From: a virus
DNA length: 64,000 nucleotides
Direction: 5' to 3' (one strand)
IMG/VR virus record: IMGVR_UViG_3300047160_018755
Coordinates: 32,001 to 96,000 of that record
The position numbers were made by a program, and so were the translations under genes. Positions 5,597 through 32,989 of this stretch are shown in pieces (positions within the stretch are counted from its first letter, which is position 1; each line of letters begins with the position of its first letter). The notes beneath the pieces were generated by a model, which ran no database searches, was not told the DNA's origin, and saw only the letters and a list, made by a program, of their open reading frames with translations.

Positions 5597-5749
5597 ATGA
5601 AGCTCCTCGTCTTTTGGTTCCCCATGATCTGTGTGTTGACCATGGCCGCGGCGGGGCTCGTGTGCTTCTACCTCGGCATGCACCGCAAGGGAGTGTTCTG
5701 GATGTTGGACGCAGCAATCACGGCCTGGTCGGCCTTCGCGCTGTTCTGA
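5597..5749 (+). CDS. Small membrane protein (50 aa)
   Basis: Hand translation MKLLVFWFPMICVLTMAAAGLVCFYLG...; stop overlaps next ATG. Confidence 0.6.
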   Translation: MKLLVFWFPMICVLTMAAAGLVCFYLGMHRKGVFWMLDAAITAWSAFALF

Positions 5750-6198
5750 TGCGTATCCAAAAAGACAAGTTCTCGTGCGGGGTGTTCGCGGTCCTCAACG
5801 CCGGGGACGCACTCGGCGTCCACCTGGCCGAGCGGACCGTGCGCAAGGACGCCGCCACGACCGAGGCGGACGGCACGAGCCAGCACGGGATCCTGAACGC
5901 ACTGGAGCGCGCCGGTCTCAAGGGGACCGAGTTCAAGATCACCGACAAGAAGGCGGCCTTCCTCCTACTCCTCGAAACGGTCAAGGCCGGAGCGCCCGTG
6001 ATCTTGTCGGTCGAGAACGACCGTCACTGGGTGGTGGCCTTCGCCGTCTCGGGCAAGAAGGTGGCGATCTTCGACTCGTGGCTCTCCCAGGAGAACCAGA
6101 AGGAGTGCGGGACCGACGTCTGGGACGCCCGCTCTCTCGCGAAGTGGTGGACGAAGACGGACGGCAACTACTACGGCATCGCGGTGGAGAAGGCATGA
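5749..6198 (+). CDS. C39-like cysteine peptidase
   Basis: QKDKFSCG, RHWVV, IFDSW triad pattern. Confidence 0.8.
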   Translation: MRIQKDKFSCGVFAVLNAGDALGVHLAERTVRKDAATTEADGTSQHGILNALERAGLKGTEFKITDKKAAFLLLLETVKAGAPVILSVENDRHWVVAFAVSGKKVAIFDSWLSQENQKECGTDVWDARSLAKWWTKTDGNYYGIAVEKA

Positions 6199-14276: not shown

Positions 14277-14608
14277 GATTCACAAAGATCCAAGCGGCCC
14301 TGTTTAAGAACGGCATCTCCTTCGTCCACATGGCCCCGACCGTGGAGCGCAAGGAGAAGGCGCTGGACGACTTCATTGCCGAGATCAACCGAACGGGCAC
14401 CTACTACACGCAGGTGTACGACCGGGTCACGCGTCAGGATGCCAGGGCGCGATTCATGCTCTGCGTCTCCAACGGGGCTGCCAGCGAGCACGTCGCCGTG
14501 ATGTTCGTGGACGGCAAGCGAGACGAGTTTCCCGACAAGCGCGCCTACGATGAGGCCCGCTACATCCCCGCCGAGGTGGATGGCGCCGGCCCCATGGTGA
14601 TCCGATGA
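14273..14608 (+). CDS. Hypothetical protein
   Basis: ATGA overlap. Confidence 0.7.
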   Translation: MRFTKIQAALFKNGISFVHMAPTVERKEKALDDFIAEINRTGTYYTQVYDRVTRQDARARFMLCVSNGAASEHVAVMFVDGKRDEFPDKRAYDEARYIPAEVDGAGPMVIR

Positions 14609-14886
14609 GCTACAAGTTCTGGTGCTCGAAGTGCAAGTTCGACCACGCGGGTGAGTGCGAGCCCGCCCCCAAGATCCCGATCGGCTTCCTACTCTTCGAC
14701 GAAGTCGCGCGCCAGCTCATGGTGTACGACGGTAGGGAGTGGCGCCCGTTCGGTTACAAGGCGGAGGATGGGGTGCTCACAGCCAGCGTCACAATCACTC
14801 TCCCACACCCCATTCAGTTCATCCCCATCAATTTCGTCATCCATCGGGACGGCCACGATGAAGAAGTTTACCGTAAGGATCAGTGA
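14605..14886 (+). CDS. CCHC-leader family protein
   Basis: [18 protein letters not shown]. Confidence 0.75.
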
Positions 14887-15190
14887 CTGCCGCGAGGACC
14901 GCTTCCGCGGATCGGGTGCCGGCGGCCAGAACCGCAACAAGCGTGACACGGGCGTGCGTCTCACCCACGAGCCCTCCGGCGTTGTGGTGGAATGCGAAGC
15001 CGAACGCAGCCAGCACCAGAACCGCGCAGGAGCGCTCAGGAAGCTCGCAAAGCATCCACGCTTCCTGGCCTGGGCGGACGCCGTGCTGCGCGGAGAAGCG
15101 TTCCAGCTGCGCGAGGAGGACGTCCGCGTCGAGGTCGGCGAGGAGGCTGCCGACTGCGCTCCCCACGAAGCTCACTGTGACGTGAAATGA
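14858..15190 (+). CDS. Class I release factor GGQ-domain protein (ArfB/RF-1-domain-like peptidyl-tRNA hydrolase)
   Basis: [26 protein letters not shown]...ERSQHQNR. Confidence 0.9.
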
Positions 15191-15414
15191 TCCCACCCCT
15201 CGGAGGCCCGGAGCCCTGGTGCTCGTGCTGCGTCGTCCCCAAGTGGGTGATGGTCGAGCAGATGCACCTGCTCTGCCAGGCGATCCAGAACGGCAGCTAC
15301 AACGTGCGCCCCGGCAAGCTGCGCCAGGGCTGCATCTCGTACATCTCGGATCACCCGCTGACCGAAGAAGAGACCGACCAGCTCTGGATTGAGACCTTCG
15401 GCCACACCGACTAG
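15187..15414 (+). CDS. Hypothetical protein
   Basis: ATGA overlap; last gene of plus run. Confidence 0.6.
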
Positions 15415-16040
15415 AGCAGCTTCGCGTTCTTGCCGGGCCGGGGGAAGTCGCGAGCGCCGTCCCGCCACGCCTGACTCAGCTCGTAGTAAAGCTCCCGTTC
15501 GCGGTCTTGTTCGAGTTCCCAGCACTCCTCGCAGAAGAAGGTCATGCCAGGGTCTTTGTAGCCGCCGCACGACAGACAGTTGAACGGCTTCCCGTCGCTG
15601 TCCCCGAGCATCTCGAACCGCACCTCCGGACGCTCCTTCACCGGCTTCGACACGAACTCGGCCAGAGCTTTCTGGAGGGGCGACGTCGGCTCCGGCTTCG
15701 CCGACTCCGCGATCGCCGCCATGATCGCTGCGTGCATGCGGTCGCCCGCGGCATCCTCCTCGATGACGGCCCCGATCAGGTCGAGGCAGGCGTCCGCCGC
15801 GATCTCGTAGCGCATGTTCTGCTCGACGAGATGCATGTTGTGGTCCTCGCACTCGCGGTAGACCAGGCGTGTGGTGGCCAGCTGCTCTTCAGCGGACTTG
15901 GTGCACCGGGCCTCGTACTCCAGGTCGCGCTTGAGCTGTACGATCTCCTTGTTCAGGCGCTTCTCTCGACGATGGTACATCGCCAGATCGCGGTAGACTG
16001 AAAGTAGTTCGGCTCGCAGCATTCCGGTGGTCTCAGTCAT
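15411..16040 (-). CDS. Coiled-coil protein with CxxC pair
   Basis: Heptads; CLSC...FCEEC. Confidence 0.7.
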   Translation of the reverse strand: MTETTGMLRAELLSVYRDLAMYHRREKRLNKEIVQLKRDLEYEARCTKSAEEQLATTRLVYRECEDHNMHLVEQNMRYEIAADACLDLIGAVIEEDAAGDRMHAAIMAAIAESAKPEPTSPLQKALAEFVSKPVKERPEVRFEMLGDSDGKPFNCLSCGGYKDPGMTFFCEECWELEQDRERELYYELSQAWRDGARDFPRPGKNAKLL

Positions 16041-16509
16041 TGGGCTTCAGCTTCTCGTACTCGTCGTACGCTTTGAGGGCCTGGGTGGCGACTGTGAAGG
16101 GGTCGCACTGGAAGACCCGCCGGCCGGGCCTCCACTCGCGCTGGATGCGCTGGAGCGCCTCCAGCAGCGTCGTGATCTGCTTGGTCTGGATGAGGAACTC
16201 CACCGCGGTGTCGACCCGCTCCATGGCGGTCTTGACCTGGCGGCACTCCGGGACGCTCTGGCAGCCGTCCATCGCACAGCTTTTCGTGTGGCCGGCCAGC
16301 TCCTGGCGCGTGAGTTTGGCGCGTGCCTCCTCGATCTTGACGATGGCGAGGCGTGGGTTGACCTTGCCCTGGTAGTGGCGCATCACCTGGTCGAGGATGT
16401 CCAGGTTGTGGCCCGTGGGGTTCTCGTCAACGAAGCCCTTGACGACGACCGCGAGGTCGCCGGGATCAGCGCAGGCCTGCGAGAGACCTTCGGGGTCGCG
16501 GTCGGTCAC
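16033..16509 (-). CDS. Hypothetical protein
   Basis: GTG 16509 overlapping upstream stop. Confidence 0.65.
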   Translation of the reverse strand: MTDRDPEGLSQACADPGDLAVVVKGFVDENPTGHNLDILDQVMRHYQGKVNPRLAIVKIEEARAKLTRQELAGHTKSCAMDGCQSVPECRQVKTAMERVDTAVEFLIQTKQITTLLEALQRIQREWRPGRRVFQCDPFTVATQALKAYDEYEKLKPND

Positions 16510-16922
16510 TTCGCGGCCTGAGCGTTGAGGACCCGCTCGCGGAACTTCTTGCCGAGCTGGTACATGTCGTCCTCCTCGTAGCCGGAGACGTCGGTCTCGG
16601 CGGCGTCGAAGCCGACGATGAAGTTCGACACCTGACACGAGGTGAGGCCGAGAATCTCCGCGGCCGTGTCGTCCGTGTTGGGCTGATTGTCGTCGTCCAC
16701 CGGCTGGTCCAGGATGACGCACGCCATCGGACACAGGCAGCCACCCGTGTCGGCTCTCCAGACGAACCCCTCGGGACCGTCGTACCCCTCCCGCTCGGGG
16801 ACCGACTCGACGCCCCATTCGCCGGGGGCGATCGTGAACCCCCGCAGGCGGGCGGCGGCGATGCCGGCGTTGAGGGACGCTTCGATGTCTGCGAGCTTTT
16901 GAGCTTTCAGTTTCTTGTTCAT
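16506..16922 (-). CDS. Paralog family B protein
   Basis: C..CPM...AAEILG...GFD...YQLGKKFR. Confidence 0.75.
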   Translation of the reverse strand: MNKKLKAQKLADIEASLNAGIAAARLRGFTIAPGEWGVESVPEREGYDGPEGFVWRADTGGCLCPMACVILDQPVDDDNQPNTDDTAAEILGLTSCQVSNFIVGFDAAETDVSGYEEDDMYQLGKKFRERVLNAQAAK

Positions 16923-16931
16923 GGGAAGACT

Positions 16932-17726
16932 CTACTCCATCGCTTCGATCGCCGCAACAAGTTTCTGCATGTCCCCGGCGTAGAACCCGGCGCAGTTGAA
17001 GTTGTTCACCTCGCCCACGAAGAGCCCGTCCTTGGTCTCGAAGACGTCCATGACAAACGCCCGAGCCGGCACCCACTTGCGGATTTCTTTCTGGGCGAAG
17101 CGCATGACCCAGGGCGGAGCGCCTTCCTCGTATCGCTTGATGGTCCCGAACTTGTAGAGGCTCGCGGTGACGATGCGCTTGTCCACGACCCAGAGCCGGT
17201 ACTCGCGCCAGATCTCACGCACGGGCGCCACGATCACCTTGGTGTCCAAGTCGACCGAGGACACGTCCTCGGGCTGGAGCCGGGCGAGCGCCTGGCGCCA
17301 CGAGACGAACGATGGCCAGTCCATGACTTGGCCCGCGAAGCTCTTCGTGTCGTGGATCGGGCGGATGAAGAACCGATCGCGGTCCGTGCCGCCGTACAGC
17401 GGATCGGCCACGACGTCTTGGATGGACGAGACCTCACAGTCGCCGTTGAGCATCTTCCAATGGTGGGCCTGAACCTCGTAGTCGAAGTTCTCGTTGTGGA
17501 AGCTCCCGGGCGCCCAGCCGCGCTGACGGGCGATTTCCGCCAGGGTGTACGTGCCCATGATGACCACGGGCACCCCGGCCAGGGTCAGCTCTGGCTCCAG
17601 CGCGTGAACGAAGGGGATGACGCGGACGAGCGTGTACGTCGACCGCAGGCGATCGAATGCATCCAGGAGGCGGGCGAAGCCCTCCTCCGAGAACATGTTG
17701 TTCTGGACGACCCAGTGAGTCTTCAC
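16932..17726 (-). CDS. ATP-grasp domain protein (DUF4343-like)
   Basis: FFIRP..DTKSFAG, REYRLWVV, FVMDV...GEVNNFNCAGFY. Confidence 0.8.
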   Translation of the reverse strand: MKTHWVVQNNMFSEEGFARLLDAFDRLRSTYTLVRVIPFVHALEPELTLAGVPVVIMGTYTLAEIARQRGWAPGSFHNENFDYEVQAHHWKMLNGDCEVSSIQDVVADPLYGGTDRDRFFIRPIHDTKSFAGQVMDWPSFVSWRQALARLQPEDVSSVDLDTKVIVAPVREIWREYRLWVVDKRIVTASLYKFGTIKRYEEGAPPWVMRFAQKEIRKWVPARAFVMDVFETKDGLFVGEVNNFNCAGFYAGDMQKLVAAIEAME

Positions 17727-17728
17727 GG

Positions 17729-18118
17729 CTACTCCAGCTGGATCCCGCCGGCCATGTGGTTGGGGTTGGGGTAGTCGCCGCCGCGGTGCAGGTAGTCCTC
17801 CAGGGCCCGGCGGAGCTGCGTGTAGCGCTCCAGGACTTCGAGCGGGAGATCTTCGAGGTCGACGTGATGCCGCTTGGTGGCCTCGATCACGTCCAGGTGA
17901 TAGCTCATACTACCGTTCCCGTCGAGCTTGAGACCCCAGTTGACCTGGTAGATCGGCGTGGGGTCATCGATCTTCGGCGGGTCCTTGGGCCACGACTCGT
18001 CACACTGAGAGTCGTTGACGATGGATCGGAGGAGCCAGTAGGACTCGGTGAGCACGCGGGCGCGGTTGACCCGCACGACCCAGTCCGCGACCGACCCGTT
18101 GAGGTTCTTGTTTTTCAA
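17729..18118 (-). CDS. Hypothetical protein
   Basis: Co-oriented run. Confidence 0.65.
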   Translation of the reverse strand: MKNKNLNGSVADWVVRVNRARVLTESYWLLRSIVNDSQCDESWPKDPPKIDDPTPIYQVNWGLKLDGNGSMSYHLDVIEATKRHHVDLEDLPLEVLERYTQLRRALEDYLHRGGDYPNPNHMAGGIQLE

Positions 18119-18483
18119 ATGAGCCCCCGAACCACGGCCCGGTACATCGCACGGGCGCGGTCACCGCCGTTGACACTCATCTGCCACGCAATCCACGAAT
18201 CGTAGTCGATCCAGAACCCACCCTGGTTGCCAGCCGGCGGGCCCATCTCCTCGTCGGTGCACGCGGGGATGGTGTTGTTTTCGAGGGCGTGGCCGAACTT
18301 GAAGTGGATGACCTGATCGCCCGGGACGTGGAACTGGTTCAGCCACTTCCCGACCAGGCCTGTCTTACGCTCCTCCGTCAGCGGAAGGCTGTAGTTGGTT
18401 GTCCAACGCCACTGCGGACCCTTCGGCGGGCATTCGCCCGCGTGGTCCTTCTTGCAGTTGCTGCACCAGAAAGCGTAGCTCAT
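18115..18483 (-). CDS. CCHC-leader family protein
   Basis: MSYAFWCSNCKKDHAGECPP. Confidence 0.75.
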   Translation of the reverse strand: MSYAFWCSNCKKDHAGECPPKGPQWRWTTNYSLPLTEERKTGLVGKWLNQFHVPGDQVIHFKFGHALENNTIPACTDEEMGPPAGNQGGFWIDYDSWIAWQMSVNGGDRARAMYRAVVRGLI

Positions 18484-18550
18484 GCCCAGACCTTACCAGA
18501 TCTGGGCTGGGAGTCAACCCCATTGCATCGACTGCACCAGAAAATGTAGC

Positions 18551-18793
18551 CTACCACGACGGCACCCGCTCGACGATCAGCTCGATCTGGGCGACGACCT
18601 GCGCGCGCCAGCCCGGAACATCCTTCGAAAGACGGCACGAGCGTCCGATGCACCACTGGTAGTACCGGTTGCAGTCGTCCTCGGTGTGACCGCAGACGCG
18701 GCAATCCCCGATCTCGTTCAGGGTCTCCCACTCCTTGGCGATGGTCTGGGCCGTCTCCTCGTAGGTGGGCGTGTCGTCTCGGAAGCCGATCAT
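18551..18793 (-). CDS. Hypothetical Cys-rich protein
   Basis: ATGA overlap at 18790-18793. Confidence 0.6.
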   Translation of the reverse strand: MIGFRDDTPTYEETAQTIAKEWETLNEIGDCRVCGHTEDDCNRYYQWCIGRSCRLSKDVPGWRAQVVAQIELIVERVPSW

Positions 18794-19206
18794 GGCCACA
18801 CCACGAAGCGGTTCTTGCCGCCGTCCGAAGCGGCGATGCCGTCCGGATCCCACCACTCGATGCGGCAGGTGTAGATCGGATGCGCGGGCGAGTTCCACTC
18901 GCGGACCTGGATGGCGGCGCCGCCTTTGCCGTTGGCCACGATCGCCATCACCTCGTAGCCGTCCTTCCAGCCCGCCGACTTCCAAACCGTGCTCCACTGG
19001 TCCTGGTGCTCGAAGAGCCACCGGGAACCGACCGGGATGACGATCATGGTGCCGTTGTTGGGCAGCGGCGTGCCGGCGGCGGGTGCCGAGGGCTTGCCGT
19101 CGACCTCCTCCACCGTCTTCTGGACGAGGGTCTTCTTGGGTGCCGGAGGACACTCGCCGGCATGGGCGAATCCGCAAGGCGTGCAGTAGAAGCTGTATCC
19201 GCTCAT
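18790..19206 (-). CDS. CCHC-leader family protein
   Basis: MSGYSFYCTPCGFAHAGECPP. Confidence 0.75.
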   Translation of the reverse strand: MSGYSFYCTPCGFAHAGECPPAPKKTLVQKTVEEVDGKPSAPAAGTPLPNNGTMIVIPVGSRWLFEHQDQWSTVWKSAGWKDGYEVMAIVANGKGGAAIQVREWNSPAHPIYTCRIEWWDPDGIAASDGGKNRFVVWP

Positions 19207-19403
19207 GGCCAAGCCTGCTTTGACAGTCGGTCGATCAGTTCCTTCTTGATGACGAGGTACGCGGCCTTCAGCTCATCGAGTGTCGCTTCTTTGATCGCCT
19301 CTTCCATCGCCTGCTGGTCATCCAGCGGCAACGGCTTGATCTTGGAGCAATCCCCAGCGTGGTCGAAGCCGCACGAAGAGCAGTGGAAGACGTAGCCGCC
19401 CAC
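19203..19403 (-). CDS. CCHC-leader family protein
   Basis: MGGYVFHCSSCGFDHAGDC. Confidence 0.7.
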   Translation of the reverse strand: MGGYVFHCSSCGFDHAGDCSKIKPLPLDDQQAMEEAIKEATLDELKAAYLVIKKELIDRLSKQAWP

Positions 19404-19406
19404 GGG

Positions 19407-19577
19407 CTACTCCTCTTCGTCGTCGACGAACTCGAACCCCTCGCGCGTGATGCCGATCTCGCAGTGCGCGCCGTCATCGTCCACGAAGAGCACCAAGATC
19501 TTGGCGCACTTGGCCCCCGGCAGGATCTTCTCCACCGACGGCCCCATCTCCTGCTCGAACTCTTCGAATTTGGTCAT
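19407..19577 (-). CDS. Small acidic protein (56 aa)
   Basis: Hand translation MTKFEEFEQEMG...DDEEE; directly after GATTCGATAGAA motif. Confidence 0.6.
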   Translation of the reverse strand: MTKFEEFEQEMGPSVEKILPGAKCAKILVLFVDDDGAHCEIGITREGFEFVDDEEE

Positions 19578-19594
19578 ACCCACCTTCTATCGAA

Positions 19595-20014
19595 TCAAGG
19601 GACGAAGCGGAGCCAGTGGCCGACGTTCACGTCGTAGAAGCCGTCGGTCAGCCAGCAGTCGATGTTGCACCACCACGTACCCCGGCCGGGATCTTGCTCG
19701 ACCCTGACCATGCCGTTGGGCGTCGCTGACATCACCTCGAACGTGGCGAATTTGTTGCCCGGCTTCCAGGGGTCCGACTTCTGCTTGCGGATCTCGGAGT
19801 GCCACGTGCTGCCGATGGCCGGCGGAACGGGCGGGGCCACGAGGATCGGCACTTTCCAGCTGTTCTGGGCGCTCTGCACCGCTTTCAGGAACATCCCCTT
19901 GACCTTCTCGACGTTAACGTCGAGGTCGGTCGGGACCGAGATCGTGAACTTCGCGGGCGGGCACTCCCCAGCGTGGGAGAGCTTGCAATTCGAGCACCAG
20001 AAGGCGTAGCTCAT
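19595..20014 (-). CDS. CCHC-leader family protein
   Basis: MSYAFWCSNCKLSHAGECPP. Confidence 0.75.
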   Translation of the reverse strand: MSYAFWCSNCKLSHAGECPPAKFTISVPTDLDVNVEKVKGMFLKAVQSAQNSWKVPILVAPPVPPAIGSTWHSEIRKQKSDPWKPGNKFATFEVMSATPNGMVRVEQDPGRGTWWCNIDCWLTDGFYDVNVGHWLRFVP

Positions 20015-20211
20015 CACTTGTCCCCGTGGAGCACCACGCGCACCGAACGCTCCAGCCACGTCACCGACAGCACCTGGCCCTTTGGGCCGACGTAGTCCTC
20101 GTCCGTGGTGTGAGAGGACAGGTCGACGTAGTCACCGACCCGCGGCACCGCCGGCCACATGCGGGTGGCTCGGGACTCGTTTTGCATGTGGACGAACTCG
20201 ATGGGGATCAT
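20014..20211 (-). CDS. Hypothetical protein
   Basis: Overlapping stop/start. Confidence 0.65.
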   Translation of the reverse strand: MIPIEFVHMQNESRATRMWPAVPRVGDYVDLSSHTTDEDYVGPKGQVLSVTWLERSVRVVLHGDK

Positions 20212-20224
20212 CGTGGGTGATCCA

Positions 20225-20413
20225 TCAGATTTTCAGCCCGAGCAGCTGGGCGAACGTCTGGAACTCGCCGACCTGCTGCTTGTTGATCATGAACTTCGTG
20301 CCGGGGGCATCGTTGTGCCACAGCAGGAACGAGCCGTCCTGGGCCTTGACCATCGTGAAGTTCGGCCCGACGTAGCGCTGGTCGCCACCGTAGATCGTGA
20401 TCGCGTCCATCAT
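20225..20413 (-). CDS. Hypothetical protein
   Basis: Co-oriented run. Confidence 0.55.
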   Translation of the reverse strand: MMDAITIYGGDQRYVGPNFTMVKAQDGSFLLWHNDAPGTKFMINKQQVGEFQTFAQLLGLKI

Positions 20414-22484: not shown

Positions 22485-22799
22485 CTAGGCCAGCTCGAAG
22501 AGCAGGGTGAACTCGCGGGGCGAGACCTTGATGTTGTCCCACCCGTCTTGGTAGTGGTCGTAGACCGGGCCCGGCGTCCGGGCCACGTAGTGGTTGACCT
22601 TCTCCGGCTTCTTGTCCGTGTGGACGACGATGAACCGGTTCTGGACGTAGACCCGGAGGTCCCAGCGCCGGAAGCGCTTCTTGAGCGCCCGCGTGATCGC
22701 CATCGCGTGGGGGCAGTGCTCGGCGATGTCCCAGTGGCCGCGGTCGATGTCGGCCTGGGTCACCTTGTAGTCGAGGGTGAACGAATCGGGATGCTTCAC
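22485..22799 (-). CDS. Hypothetical protein
   Basis: GTGA overlap. Confidence 0.6.
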   Translation of the reverse strand: MKHPDSFTLDYKVTQADIDRGHWDIAEHCPHAMAITRALKKRFRRWDLRVYVQNRFIVVHTDKKPEKVNHYVARTPGPVYDHYQDGWDNIKVSPREFTLLFELA

Positions 22800-23503
22800 G
22801 GCTGGGCCTCCGCGGTGGAACGCAGGAAGTCGATGACGTCCTGCTTGGTGGTTTCGGGCTTGTCGTTCCAATACCCGATCTCGCCGCGGAACTCGGGCTT
22901 GGCGTCGTAGAGGGCGTCGCAGGCGTTGCACTCGGCGGTGTAGGCCGCGTTGGAGCGGATGCCATCGTCGCGGACGATGTTGTCGAGCCCCAGCTCCTTG
23001 ATGGCGATCGAGACCGCCCCCAGCGTGCAGCAGGCGTACGGGGTGTTGTCGAGGTGACGAAGCGTCATCAGACCCTTGCAGTGGTCGAGGCGCTCCGCCA
23101 CTTCGGCGGCCTTCAGCAGGACTTCTTTGGTCGTGGGCATGGGGGTCCTTTCAGACGATGAGGTTGGGGAGGGCGGACTTGTGGGAGGATCGTACTTCTC
23201 CCGGAGGTTGGCGCCCAGCTTCCAGGCTTCCTCGCCTTCCCCGTACCGGCGGTTGCCGTCGAAGCCCTCCGTGATCCTCCAGACGTCGGAGACCTCGATG
23301 CCCAAGATCTCGGCCGCGGCCCCGAGGGAGTCGGCCTCCCGGTAGCGCGGGCCCATCACCATCGTGATCGGGCAGCACTTGGCGCCGGGCTCGTAGGCCC
23401 CGAAACACCCGTGCACCAAGATCGCCCCGAACTCCTTCCCGCGCTCGACCGCGGTCTCGATTTGGGCTTGCACCAACTTCCACTTTTCCGGCAGCTCGTT
23501 CAT
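22796..23503 (-). CDS. Fusion ORF: family B domain + DUF6197-like domain (internal SD and ATG at 23140)
   Basis: N part CCPIT..GFD..WKLGANLR; C part CCTLGA..YWND..TTKQDVIDFL. Confidence 0.65.
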   Translation of the reverse strand: MNELPEKWKLVQAQIETAVERGKEFGAILVHGCFGAYEPGAKCCPITMVMGPRYREADSLGAAAEILGIEVSDVWRITEGFDGNRRYGEGEEAWKLGANLREKYDPPTSPPSPTSSSERTPMPTTKEVLLKAAEVAERLDHCKGLMTLRHLDNTPYACCTLGAVSIAIKELGLDNIVRDDGIRSNAAYTAECNACDALYDAKPEFRGEIGYWNDKPETTKQDVIDFLRSTAEAQP

Positions 23504-23671
23504 GGATCTGACCCTAACCGATCCGTGCGGAGAATGCAACCCTCTATTCTCCGCAAACCCGACAAAATTTTTTCCACACCCAGTGGGGCAAAATGCCCCA
23601 CTGCCCCAGCCTCGCTTCCGCTCGGCCCCGGGGCGTTTCTAGGCTTGACACCAATCTCAGGAGGTGAGAGG

Positions 23672-32664: not shown

Positions 32665-32989
32665 CGCGCTGTGTGAGGAGACCGGGCGCCCACACAACTA
32701 CACCGCCGACCTGGAGTACGACGCGACGGGTCAGACCATCAACTGCGAGGACTGCGGCGAGCCGCAGCCGCAGGACGCCGGCAACTACGGTGACGCGACG
32801 TTCCGCAAGCTGATGGACCTCGGCCTGCTGCTGCAAGACGGGGACCAAATGGTGGGCCTCAAGCTGTTCCTGGGCAGCATGGACCTGGAGACGCCAGCGC
32901 TACGCAAACTTCGTGCCGAGATCGAGAAGTTCACCGCCCGCATCGAGGGCCTGACGCAGGCGGCCAAGGTCGCCACGGGAATGGAGTGA
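32648..32989 (+). CDS. Hypothetical protein
   Basis: Co-oriented run. Confidence 0.6.
   Translation: MTSPSDALCEETGRPHNYTADLEYDATGQTINCEDCGEPQPQDAGNYGDATFRKLMDLGLLLQDGDQMVGLKLFLGSMDLETPALRKLRAEIEKFTARIEGLTQAAKVATGME

Follow-up and report, generated by a model that had tools for sequence, protein, structure and literature searches.

A terminal zinc-knuckle-type leader on small, otherwise diverse proteins of uncultured soil phages

The window, by which we mean the whole stretch of 64,000 nucleotides that was analysed, belongs to the 182,279-bp genome of an uncultured soil phage in which five small genes, ZK1 to ZK5, open with a common 18-residue knuckle of the zinc-binding type. A first-pass annotation of the DNA had described this leader as Y-x-F-[WYH]-C-x2-C-x3-HAG-[ED]-C and had pointed to a degenerate remnant of it at about 18480-18556; both descriptions stood. 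The features are as follows.

14605-14886, + strand: ZK1, 93 aa; leader at 14605-14664; tail of class B type
18115-18483, - strand: ZK2, 122 aa; leader at 18424-18483
18480-18556, - strand: decayed leader remnant, a 25-codon frame in which G-Y-I-F-W-C-S-R-C is still present but the His and the fourth Cys are gone
18790-19206, - strand: ZK3, 138 aa; leader at 19144-19206, then a disordered linker; class A tail, all-beta and Tudor/SH3-like
19203-19403, - strand: ZK4, 66 aa; GTG start behind a GAGGAG site; leader at 19341-19403; class D tail
19595-20014, - strand: ZK5, 139 aa; leader at 19955-20014; class A tail

When the window and the complete genome of 182,279 bp were scanned in six frames for C-x2-C-x3-H-x3-C, exactly five matches came out, all of them at ZK1-ZK5 and none elsewhere; in 60 base shuffles of the genome the number averaged 0.32 and never exceeded 2. 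Each of the five conforms to the full pattern [YF]-x-F-[WYH]-C-x2-C-x3-H-[AP]-G-[ED]-C as well, and the motif starts at residue 7 or 8 of each open reading frame. ZK1-ZK5 are coding-type, translationally coupled genes: their third-position GC (0.79-0.89) is the coding pattern of the phage genome, and each start either overlaps the upstream stop (ATGA/TGATG) or has a GAGGAG-type ribosome site. The remnant lies between the stop of the gene at 18551-18793 and the start of ZK2, which it overlaps through an ATGA.

The neighbours of the ZK genes are small orphan genes beside an ATP-grasp gene, a GGQ-domain gene and a DUF6197 gene, with no structural module. This context bears on the proposal, made in the first-pass annotation, that the leader serves in virion loading, that is, that it would admit its carriers to the prohead for co-injection in the manner of the T4 capsid targeting sequence. 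The T4 sequence is a short N-terminal peptide common to otherwise different small phage proteins; it has no metal-binding motif, is cut by the prohead protease and occurs on virion proteins. The likeness lies in the sharing of an N-terminal peptide by different small proteins, as in the T4 internal proteins. However, the ZK genes are found outside any structural module, the putative head-protease site L-x-K-[AS] occurs in none of the five ZK proteins, the leader is predicted to be a folded zinc knuckle unlike the short T4 tag, and its relatives elsewhere lie in DNA-metabolism or early-type blocks. Virion loading is thus disfavoured and, in our estimation, very unlikely.

An exhaustive profile search of 1.84 billion representatives (E <= 1e-3) extended the family to 160 protein clusters that carry the leader. 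In 139 of 154 family members the motif begins no later than residue 12, and the consensus, of about 18 residues, reads G-Y-x-F-[WHY]-C-[ST]-x-C-[KG]-x-x-H-A-G-E-C-P-P. The four ligands and the F at position -2 are 100% conserved, and the A, G and E that follow the His are conserved in 77%, 93% and 92%, respectively. On contigs of related phages the leader occurs in arrays of three to six copies, as on a 167-kb contig with six inside 12 kb and an 87.6-kb contig with three in tandem. In a complete 38-kb phage, a leader gene is flanked by a DprA-like gene and an endonuclease VII gene. The first impression of a constant leader on diverse proteins was therefore borne out, on a far broader scale than the five genes of the window: about 160 clusters, at least ten classes of tail, and arrays.

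The leader is conserved as a peptide and not as DNA, and selection acts on the peptide. It had been remarked that the two closest copies differ at many synonymous sites, and the comparison of ZK5 with ZK2 agrees: 18 of 20 residues are identical, 7 of these 18 are written with other codons, and nucleotide identity is 77%. Among the five genes, the leader copies share 53-82% of their nucleotides and show many synonymous differences at conserved residues. The clustering of the copies and the presence of a decayed one between genes would suit a repeat that operates at the level of DNA or RNA, or that arose by recent duplication, and is not a protein feature. This reading is contradicted both by the divergence of the nucleotide sequences just described and by the retention of the motif in 160 clusters that span about 41% to 68% GC, and it can practically be dismissed.

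Two independent AlphaFold2 models, of ZK1 and ZK3, gave the same hairpin for the leader at a pLDDT of about 70-80. The strands are placed at residues 4-7 and 12-15 in ZK1 (pLDDT about 79) and at residues 6-8 and 13-15 in ZK3, and the modelled layout runs from a beta-hairpin knuckle through a disordered Pro-rich linker to the tail. In the ZK3 model, residues 24-35 fall below a pLDDT of 50 and the tail rises above 90, which indicates that knuckle and tail do not pack together. Most likely the leader folds alone into a beta-hairpin knuckle built on one zinc, whose ligands would be Cys, Cys, His and Cys.

The tails of the family fall into at least ten types, several of which recur. An HMM of the class A tail matches 75 of 166, so that about 45% of tails are a Tudor/SH3-like beta domain. 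The tails of ZK3 and ZK5 belong to this class and have a domain in common (blastp E 7.5e-7; alignment A4, with 12 members). The earlier statement that the C-terminal parts share nothing obvious is consequently only partly right, as it fails for ZK3 and ZK5 with their common all-beta Tudor/SH3-like tail. ZK1 and ZK4 represent two further types, both of which recur elsewhere: the ZK1 tail terminates in a P-x-x-F-I-P-I-x-F strand and has relatives in P0006, P0016 and P0076, and the class D tail of ZK4 is one amphipathic helix with relatives that include P0072, P0117 and P0151. For the ZK2 tail, no relative was found beyond its own genome. Fold searches with the class A tail gave matches at Z 5-5.7, including RNA polymerase-binding Tudor domains at Z 5.7; this likeness is weak, as values below 8 may reflect a common arrangement alone according to the guidance for fold searches. 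In PDB and BFVD, Foldseek returned no hit at E <= 0.001, only a generic likeness to Tudor/SH3 and DUF1653. The tail model of ZK1 (pTM 0.26) was too poor for a fold search.

The family of about 160 clusters has no name, no Pfam or NCBIfam family and no solved relative. The five window proteins matched no family above threshold in Pfam, NCBIfam or PHROGs, and the same was true of 20 other family members in Pfam and PHROGs. Sequence searches of the PDB with leader profiles reached at best E 0.3, with rubredoxin-like C-x2-C only, and the ESM Atlas returned only unnamed viral clusters (score 0.87, under the level counted as a lead). A tblastn search with ZK5 found no match among 50,697 phage records. 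Myxococcus phage Mx1 holds no copy; its one match to a loose pattern lies antisense within a gene, no more than the reversed-pattern control gave. A full-leader DNA pattern found two matches in 185,579 bacterial species genomes, one of them a C-terminal form from a MAG of Flavisolibacter and the other, L125, unlike a family member in appearance; at this stringency the family is essentially absent from bacterial chromosomes and prophages. In the literature, the spacing C-x2-C-x3-H-x3-C, sought in four common notations, was found in no paper, and nothing relevant turned up on phage CCHC zinc knuckles. The initial judgement that this is not a described system was correct as far as Pfam, NCBIfam, PDB and these notations reach.

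Among known modules, zf-CCHC (PF00098, retroviral/CNBP) resembles the leader in having a very short Cys-Cys-His-Cys metal site on a hairpin, adjacent aromatics and the possibility of a tandem arrangement, as in P0024. The spacing differs, as the first reading had noticed: zf-CCHC has x2/x4/x4, whereas the leader has x2/x3/x3 in all 154 members and bears the signature H-A-G-E-C. Unlike zf-CCHC, the leader has its aromatics before the first Cys, a net charge of zero and a strictly terminal position, and the PF00098 HMM gave no match at E <= 10 in the five window proteins or the 12 A4 members. The sole Pfam model that repeatedly touches the leader is Zn_ribbon_PRDM4 (PF18445), in 5 of the 12 A4 members, ZK2 and P0084, with scores under the 25.8-bit cut-off (best 19.6 bits, P0084; 15.8 bits, ZK2); the PRDM4-type knuckle differs in being eukaryotic and placed before a PR/SET domain. 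The SEC-C motif (PF02810), known from the SecA C-terminus, is a terminal zinc tag of about 20 residues that is joined by a flexible linker to unrelated proteins and serves in docking. SEC-C is bacterial and its ligands follow C-x-C-x8-C-[CH], in contrast to those of the leader, and its HMM found no match at E <= 10 in the five window proteins.

Many actinophage proteins (phrog_1581 and others) also end, at their very C-terminus, in the 12-residue core of the leader, and 89 of 117 pattern matches in IMG/VR terminate with HAG[ED]C or at most one residue after it. Proteins of the phrog_1581 type appear to share with the leader an identical 12-residue core, a strictly terminal position, attachment through a linker and fusion to varied partners. 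They differ from it in having the knuckle at the other terminus and no Y-x-F-W strand, and basic residues usually stand before the knuckle. In P0150, the full motif makes up the last residues, and this protein bridges the N- and C-terminal forms. Against the phrog_1581 profile, the leaders of ZK4, ZK5 and P0007 gave weak matches restricted to positions 153-170 (E 0.095-0.32), whereas actinophage proteins score between 1e-13 and 1e-29. Given these values, a single bridging protein and an actinophage C-terminal set that was chosen by the pattern itself, the comparison weakly suggests that the N-terminal leader and the actinophage C-terminal knuckle may be related.

The carriers of the C-terminal core include HTH proteins and members of PHROG 'DNA binding protein' families, and the actinophage carriers lie in replication/recombination clusters, adjoining resolvase and exonuclease genes. 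Together with the location of the leader gene of the 38-kb phage between its DprA-like and endonuclease VII genes, this would fit a knuckle that binds nucleic acid as retroviral or CNBP-type CCHC knuckles do, in which exposed aromatics stack on bases and lend every member affinity for ssDNA or RNA. The three aromatic positions directly before the first Cys point in the same direction, and so does P0024, which has five tandem knuckles of equal x2/x3/x3 spacing, an arrangement known from CNBP. Retroviral nucleocapsid knuckles, however, are strongly basic, and the mean net charge of the leader is 0 in the core and only +0.4 in the following ten residues. Further, a lone 18-residue knuckle is usually a weak binder, and the failure of zf-CCHC to match argues in the same sense. 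We regard nucleic-acid binding as an unlikely role of the leader.

For a module that is terminal, modular, present in several copies and conserved at the peptide level, the explanation to which we give the greatest weight, with a probability of roughly 0.4, is that of a portable, self-folding zinc knuckle that acts as a common docking handle. On this view, a multigene family of modular design, made up of small non-structural phage proteins that are probably early, would have the leader as its invariant N-terminal part, with a flexible Pro-rich linker between the knuckle and the interchangeable tails. Through the knuckle, all family members would attach to a single common partner, which could be a host hub or a phage protein, and the tail would provide the individual target or activity. 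We infer that the knuckle binds zinc, that it is autonomous in solution and that it acts in docking. In a domain of 18 residues nearly every residue is structural, so that conservation is no proof of a binding surface, and the strictly terminal position could merely reflect the mode in which the module was acquired.

As the shared partner of such a docking handle, the first-pass annotation had named among others a C39 protease, and the phage genome does contain a C39 peptidase (window 5614-6198). This suggestion was not borne out. C39 was not found in the 38-kb phage, a complete genome with a leader gene, and no close homologue of the window C39 was found in any other contig; C39 was rejected as a required partner on these two grounds. 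A check for a double-glycine-type site, defined as [GAS]-G at -2/-1 of an N-terminal leader of 15-30 residues, showed A-G at leader positions 15-16, where a cut would remove the fourth ligand. Leaders of double-glycine C39 substrates have a hydrophobic -4/-7 pattern, which is absent here, the corresponding positions being D/S/A and Cys.

The strictly terminal position at either end of the protein, 3-12 residues from the Met or 0-1 before the stop, and the occurrence of the module on proteins as small as ZK4 (66 aa) would also suit a structural end-cap that has no partner and shields the terminus from host exopeptidases, N-degron recognition or AAA+ proteases. Such a cap would be unable to stabilise the fold of the tail because the linker is disordered in the ZK3 model, and the same linker offers an internal entry site for proteases. 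The very strong conservation of the module across tails that already fold by themselves is also at odds with it, and we consider a cap decidedly unlikely. If the leader were only a stabilising cap, it would still represent a minimal zinc fold that is new and of which no structure has been solved.

The presence of several copies per genome, in one operon, has a further possible explanation, namely that the knuckles bind each other as homotypic adaptors and assemble a mixed complex of paralogues, comparable to the effector-associated domains of conflict systems. The complete 38-kb phage is apparently single-copy, with one match for each of two DNA patterns; an interface of 18 residues would be very small, and there is no sign of oligomerisation. 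Homotypic adaptors are accordingly held to be extremely improbable.

Docking on one shared partner may be extended beyond the soil phages. The HAGEC knuckle would then be a general phage address module that docks many early proteins on one conserved host hub, e.g. RNA polymerase or an AAA+ machine, with the N-terminus used by Mx1-like soil phages and the C-terminus by actinophages, whose hosts are unrelated. In the tandem arrays, the variable Tudor-like tails would serve to recruit different host targets to this hub. We hold this wider proposal to be doubtful.

No other pool of genes of unknown function is as large as that of the small early phage proteins, most of which offer no experimental handle. 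The leader is a short, sharply conserved and easily mutated module that marks about 160 clusters of soil-phage proteins. If the knuckle docks on one partner, the identification of that partner would give the first functional clue for the whole family, and the leader would provide a natural 18-residue tag for tethering cargo. The core of the leader recurs on hundreds of proteins of cultured actinophages, and one homologue on the phrog_1581 side carries an all-Cys variant of the knuckle.

The phage genome is a single contig of 182,279 bp (63% GC) with repeated ends, which IMG/VR lists with direct terminal repeats and an estimated completeness of 100%; the window covers its positions 32001-96000. 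Because a window protein of 703 residues resembles a protein of Myxococcus phage Mx1 alone (32% identity to a hypothetical protein, the sole match in 50,697 phage records), the phage is, judging from sequence, a distant uncultured relative of Mx1. A six-frame scan for the zinc-knuckle spacing C-x2-C-x3-H-x3-C returned exactly five matches in the window, and a scan of the whole genome added none; 60 shuffles of the genome gave a chance mean of 0.32. All five contain the longer pattern Y-x-F-[WYH]-C-x2-C-x3-H-A-G-[ED]-C, beginning at residue 7 or 8 of the ORF, so that the five-copy leader described in the first-pass annotation was borne out and extended. The five genes, named ZK1 to ZK5 in coordinate order, and a leader remnant are located as follows.

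14605-14886, plus strand: ZK1, leader gene
18115-18483, minus strand: ZK2, leader gene
18480-18556, minus strand: leader remnant, 25-codon frame
18790-19206, minus strand: ZK3, leader gene
19203-19403, minus strand: ZK4, leader gene
19595-20014, minus strand: ZK5, leader gene

The third-position GC of the ZK genes (0.79-0.89) matches that of the other genes of the genome. Their starts are predicted to be coupled to upstream genes: ZK1 and ZK3 overlap the upstream gene by ATGA and ZK5 by TGATG, and ZK4 has a GTG start with a GAGGAG site 7 nt ahead of it. The earlier claim that the leader is conserved as a peptide also held at the level of codons: the ZK5 and ZK2 leaders are identical at 18 of 20 residues, 7 of these 18 use different codons (TCG vs AGC for Ser, for example), and nucleotide identity over all ZK pairs is 53-82%. 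The previously noticed degenerate remnant was recovered as a frame that exactly fills the space from the stop codon of gene 18551-18793 to the ZK2 ATG. It keeps G-Y-I-F-W-C-S-R-C but neither the His nor the last Cys, and shows a 12-nt alignment gap. It reads as a dead leader copy, consistent with an array that turns over by birth and death. The gene between ZK3 and the remnant (18551-18793, minus strand) encodes an 80-aa Cys-rich protein (C-x2-C-x-H ... C ... C ... C) with no family match, possibly a further small metal binder encoded in the same operon.

Searched with a profile of the five leaders, 5.8 billion proteins gave 13 from outside the phage genome (E 2e-9 to 1e-3), all unnamed and none with a Pfam domain. 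A degenerate DNA pattern of the full leader matched 17 metagenome contigs and one IMG/VR contig; across the genomes of 185,579 species it matched at two places only. The leader-HMM scan proposed earlier was run with a 35-leader profile on all 1.84 billion cluster representatives and yielded 160 proteins at E <= 1e-3, from which no known domain emerged; 20 further family members showed no Pfam or PHROG family. No relative of the leader was found in Pfam, NCBIfam or the PDB. The retroviral zf-CCHC model does not match it and differs in spacing too, and the PRDM4 zinc knuckle, the only Pfam model recurring on the family, always fell under its cut-off. The spacing was not found written in any paper by literature search, in agreement with the first impression that this is not a described system. 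The leader represents an unnamed new form of zinc knuckle, unusual in its strictly terminal and promiscuous use.

The consensus of 154 members is [E/D/S]-G-Y-[V/S/A]-F-[W/H/Y]-C-[S/T]-x-C-[K/G]-x-x-H-A-G-E-C-P-P, in which the F and the four ligands are invariant (A 77%, G 93%, E 92%); the mean net charge of the core is zero, and the ten residues after it are 22% proline. The motif begins within the first 12 residues in 139 of the 154 sequences, and most of the remaining 15 have an internal Met or Val just ahead of it and look like miscalled starts. In P0150 (147 aa), the full motif forms the last residues of the protein. Another retrieved protein, the metagenomic P0024 (233 aa), has a RING-like N-terminal region followed by five tandem knuckles of the same spacing; its 17-residue repeats (C-S-N-C-G-x-R-H-N-[GD]-E-C) belong to a kind of protein quite unlike the phage knuckle proteins. 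Among related large contigs, one of 167 kb carries six leader copies within 12 kb and one of 87.6 kb has three adjoining leader genes. A complete 38-kb phage record gave just one match to the DNA patterns, a leader gene flanked by DprA-like and endonuclease VII genes, and Mx1 has no leader copy. The module occurs in multiple copies per phage, among non-structural genes, and selection at the peptide level maintains it.

Contrary to the first impression that the C-terminal parts share nothing obvious, some ZK tails are related to each other; ZK2 has the sole ZK tail without a relative outside the phage genome. ZK3 and ZK5 have a C-terminal domain in common (blastp E 7.5e-7, small database), with a (nearly) invariant G-S-x-W, second W, G and R of a closing R-F-V-type strand in an alignment of 12 members, and an HMM of this domain matches 75 of 166 family sequences. 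A P-x-x-F-I-P-I-x-F strand closes ZK1 and represents a second recurrent type, and the short amphipathic helix of ZK4 was found again on about a dozen members outside the genome. The remaining tails fall into at least ten types, recurrent or single, including two Cys-rich types and the ZK4 helical type.

In the AlphaFold2 model of ZK3 (with 12 relatives; mean pLDDT 81), residues 6-8 and 13-15 form a beta hairpin (about 70-78), the linker, residues 24-35, scores below 50, and the all-beta tail scores above 90. The ZK1 model (with 14 relatives) has the same hairpin at residues 4-7 and 12-15 (about 79) and a poor tail. On the basis of these models, we regard the knuckle as a unit separate from the tail and flexibly tethered to it. 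The ZK3 tail gave generic Tudor/SH3-like matches only, the best being the CarD RNA-polymerase-interacting domain (Z 5.7, rmsd 2.1 A, 58 residues), DUF1653 and BAH/Tudor domains, followed by the CdnL, Mfd and UvrD/PcrA C-terminal Tudor domains. Because Z values under 8 can reflect merely a common arrangement, these matches are a lead only; Foldseek gave no match at E <= 0.001.

The leader is an invariant Cys2-His-Cys module of short length, found at a protein end in every case and connected to a wide variety of tails through a flexible linker. It would bind one zinc ion and fold alone, and because it is not packed on the tail, the knuckle would have a function of its own. Tentatively (probability about 0.4), we favour a common docking handle, because a tether plus a variable domain is the layout of adaptors. 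The address-tag interpretation first offered is supported in part. A terminal protective cap is improbable, and a homotypic assembly module very improbable. Virion loading, one of the options first proposed, is nearly as improbable as homotypic assembly, given the position of the ZK genes and the lack of the head-protease site L-x-K-[AS] in ZK1-ZK5. A C39 protease was also suggested, as a partner. A stand-alone C39-type peptidase domain (window 5614-6198, plus strand; 31.5 bits, above cut-off) lacks an ABC transporter part and has no close homologue besides itself in 5.8 billion proteins; it is not a required partner.

The shorter DNA pattern C-x2-C-x3-HAG[ED]C matched at least 117 IMG/VR loci. 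In 89 of 117 among the matches listed, the motif runs to within 0-1 residue of the stop, in real-looking genes on contigs whose GC is mostly 60-73%; the remainder look largely fortuitous, containing stops or having a non-coding composition. Most C-terminal carriers, a set picked by the pattern itself, have about 65 residues and match phrog_1581 (function unknown; E 1e-13 to 1e-29), the knuckle being positions 143-166 of that profile. Others are HTH proteins, coiled-coil proteins and 470-490-residue members of phrog_1568, a PHROG 'DNA binding protein'. Among Mycobacterium, Gordonia and Arthrobacter phages, at least 123 records contain a homologue, which is annotated 'hypothetical protein' in nearly every case. 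The carrier genes belong to clusters for replication and recombination: that of Gordonia phage Pupper comes after a polymerase, UvsX-like recombinase, resolvase and exonuclease, and that of Mycobacterium phage LilPharaoh stands two genes beyond a Cas4-family nuclease. This DNA-related company speaks for a weak nucleic-acid-binding knuckle, a reading that is unlikely, if less so than the cap, since the uncharged core argues against binding of the nucleocapsid kind. Independently of the pattern, the ZK4, ZK5 and P0007 (a retrieved member) leaders align exactly to the knuckle positions of phrog_1581, only at E 0.1-0.3. Taken with the C-terminal motif of P0150, this contact makes it plausible, not proven, that the N- and C-terminal modules have the same origin or, failing that, the same fold. 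Cultured actinophages lend themselves readily to tests of the leader's function.

In Arthrobacter phage Seahorse (MH910041.1, about 32799-32984; locus L145, 2501-2686, plus strand), an intact 61-codon phrog_1581 homologue ends in an all-Cys variant of the site, C-x2-C-x5-C-x-C, not in the HAGEC form; the record annotates instead gene 53, a 39-codon CDS that lies within it in a different frame, probably a mis-annotation. Locus L003 (7362-7553, minus strand) and other phrog_1581 members carry C-x2-C ... G-D ... H-x2-C in the N-terminal half, which weakly resembles Vps39 C-terminal and LIM-type zinc fingers (E 0.1-0.2); if this likeness holds, the 65-aa proteins would hold two metal sites.

Beside the ZK genes, a stand-alone 110-aa RF-1/GGQ peptidyl-tRNA hydrolase domain (PF00472, E 6.6e-21; window 14858-15190, plus strand) starts with a 29-nt overlap of the ZK1 end. 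Convergent with the rightward operon containing ZK1, gene 15411-16040 (minus strand) encodes 209 aa with a coiled-coil-like N-terminal region and a zinc-ribbon-like C-terminal C-x2-C ... C-x2-C. An R2K-clade ATP-grasp (16932-17726, minus strand; PF14243, E 6e-17; phrog_7313) in the same leftward block as the minus-strand ZK genes has homologues of 33-39% identity in jumbo phages of Ralstonia, Brevundimonas and Rhizobium; none was seen near leader genes in related contigs. DUF6197 is the sole Pfam family common to the leader-gene neighbourhoods of the phage and two related contigs, within 4-5 kb of leader genes (window 22796-23539, minus strand; L119 14986-15399; L120 5252-5608). On the 167-kb contig, NADAR, NAPRTase and phosphoribosyltransferase genes (16184-20378), about 6 kb from the leader-gene array, constitute an NAD-salvage set; phages use such sets to counter NAD-depleting defences.
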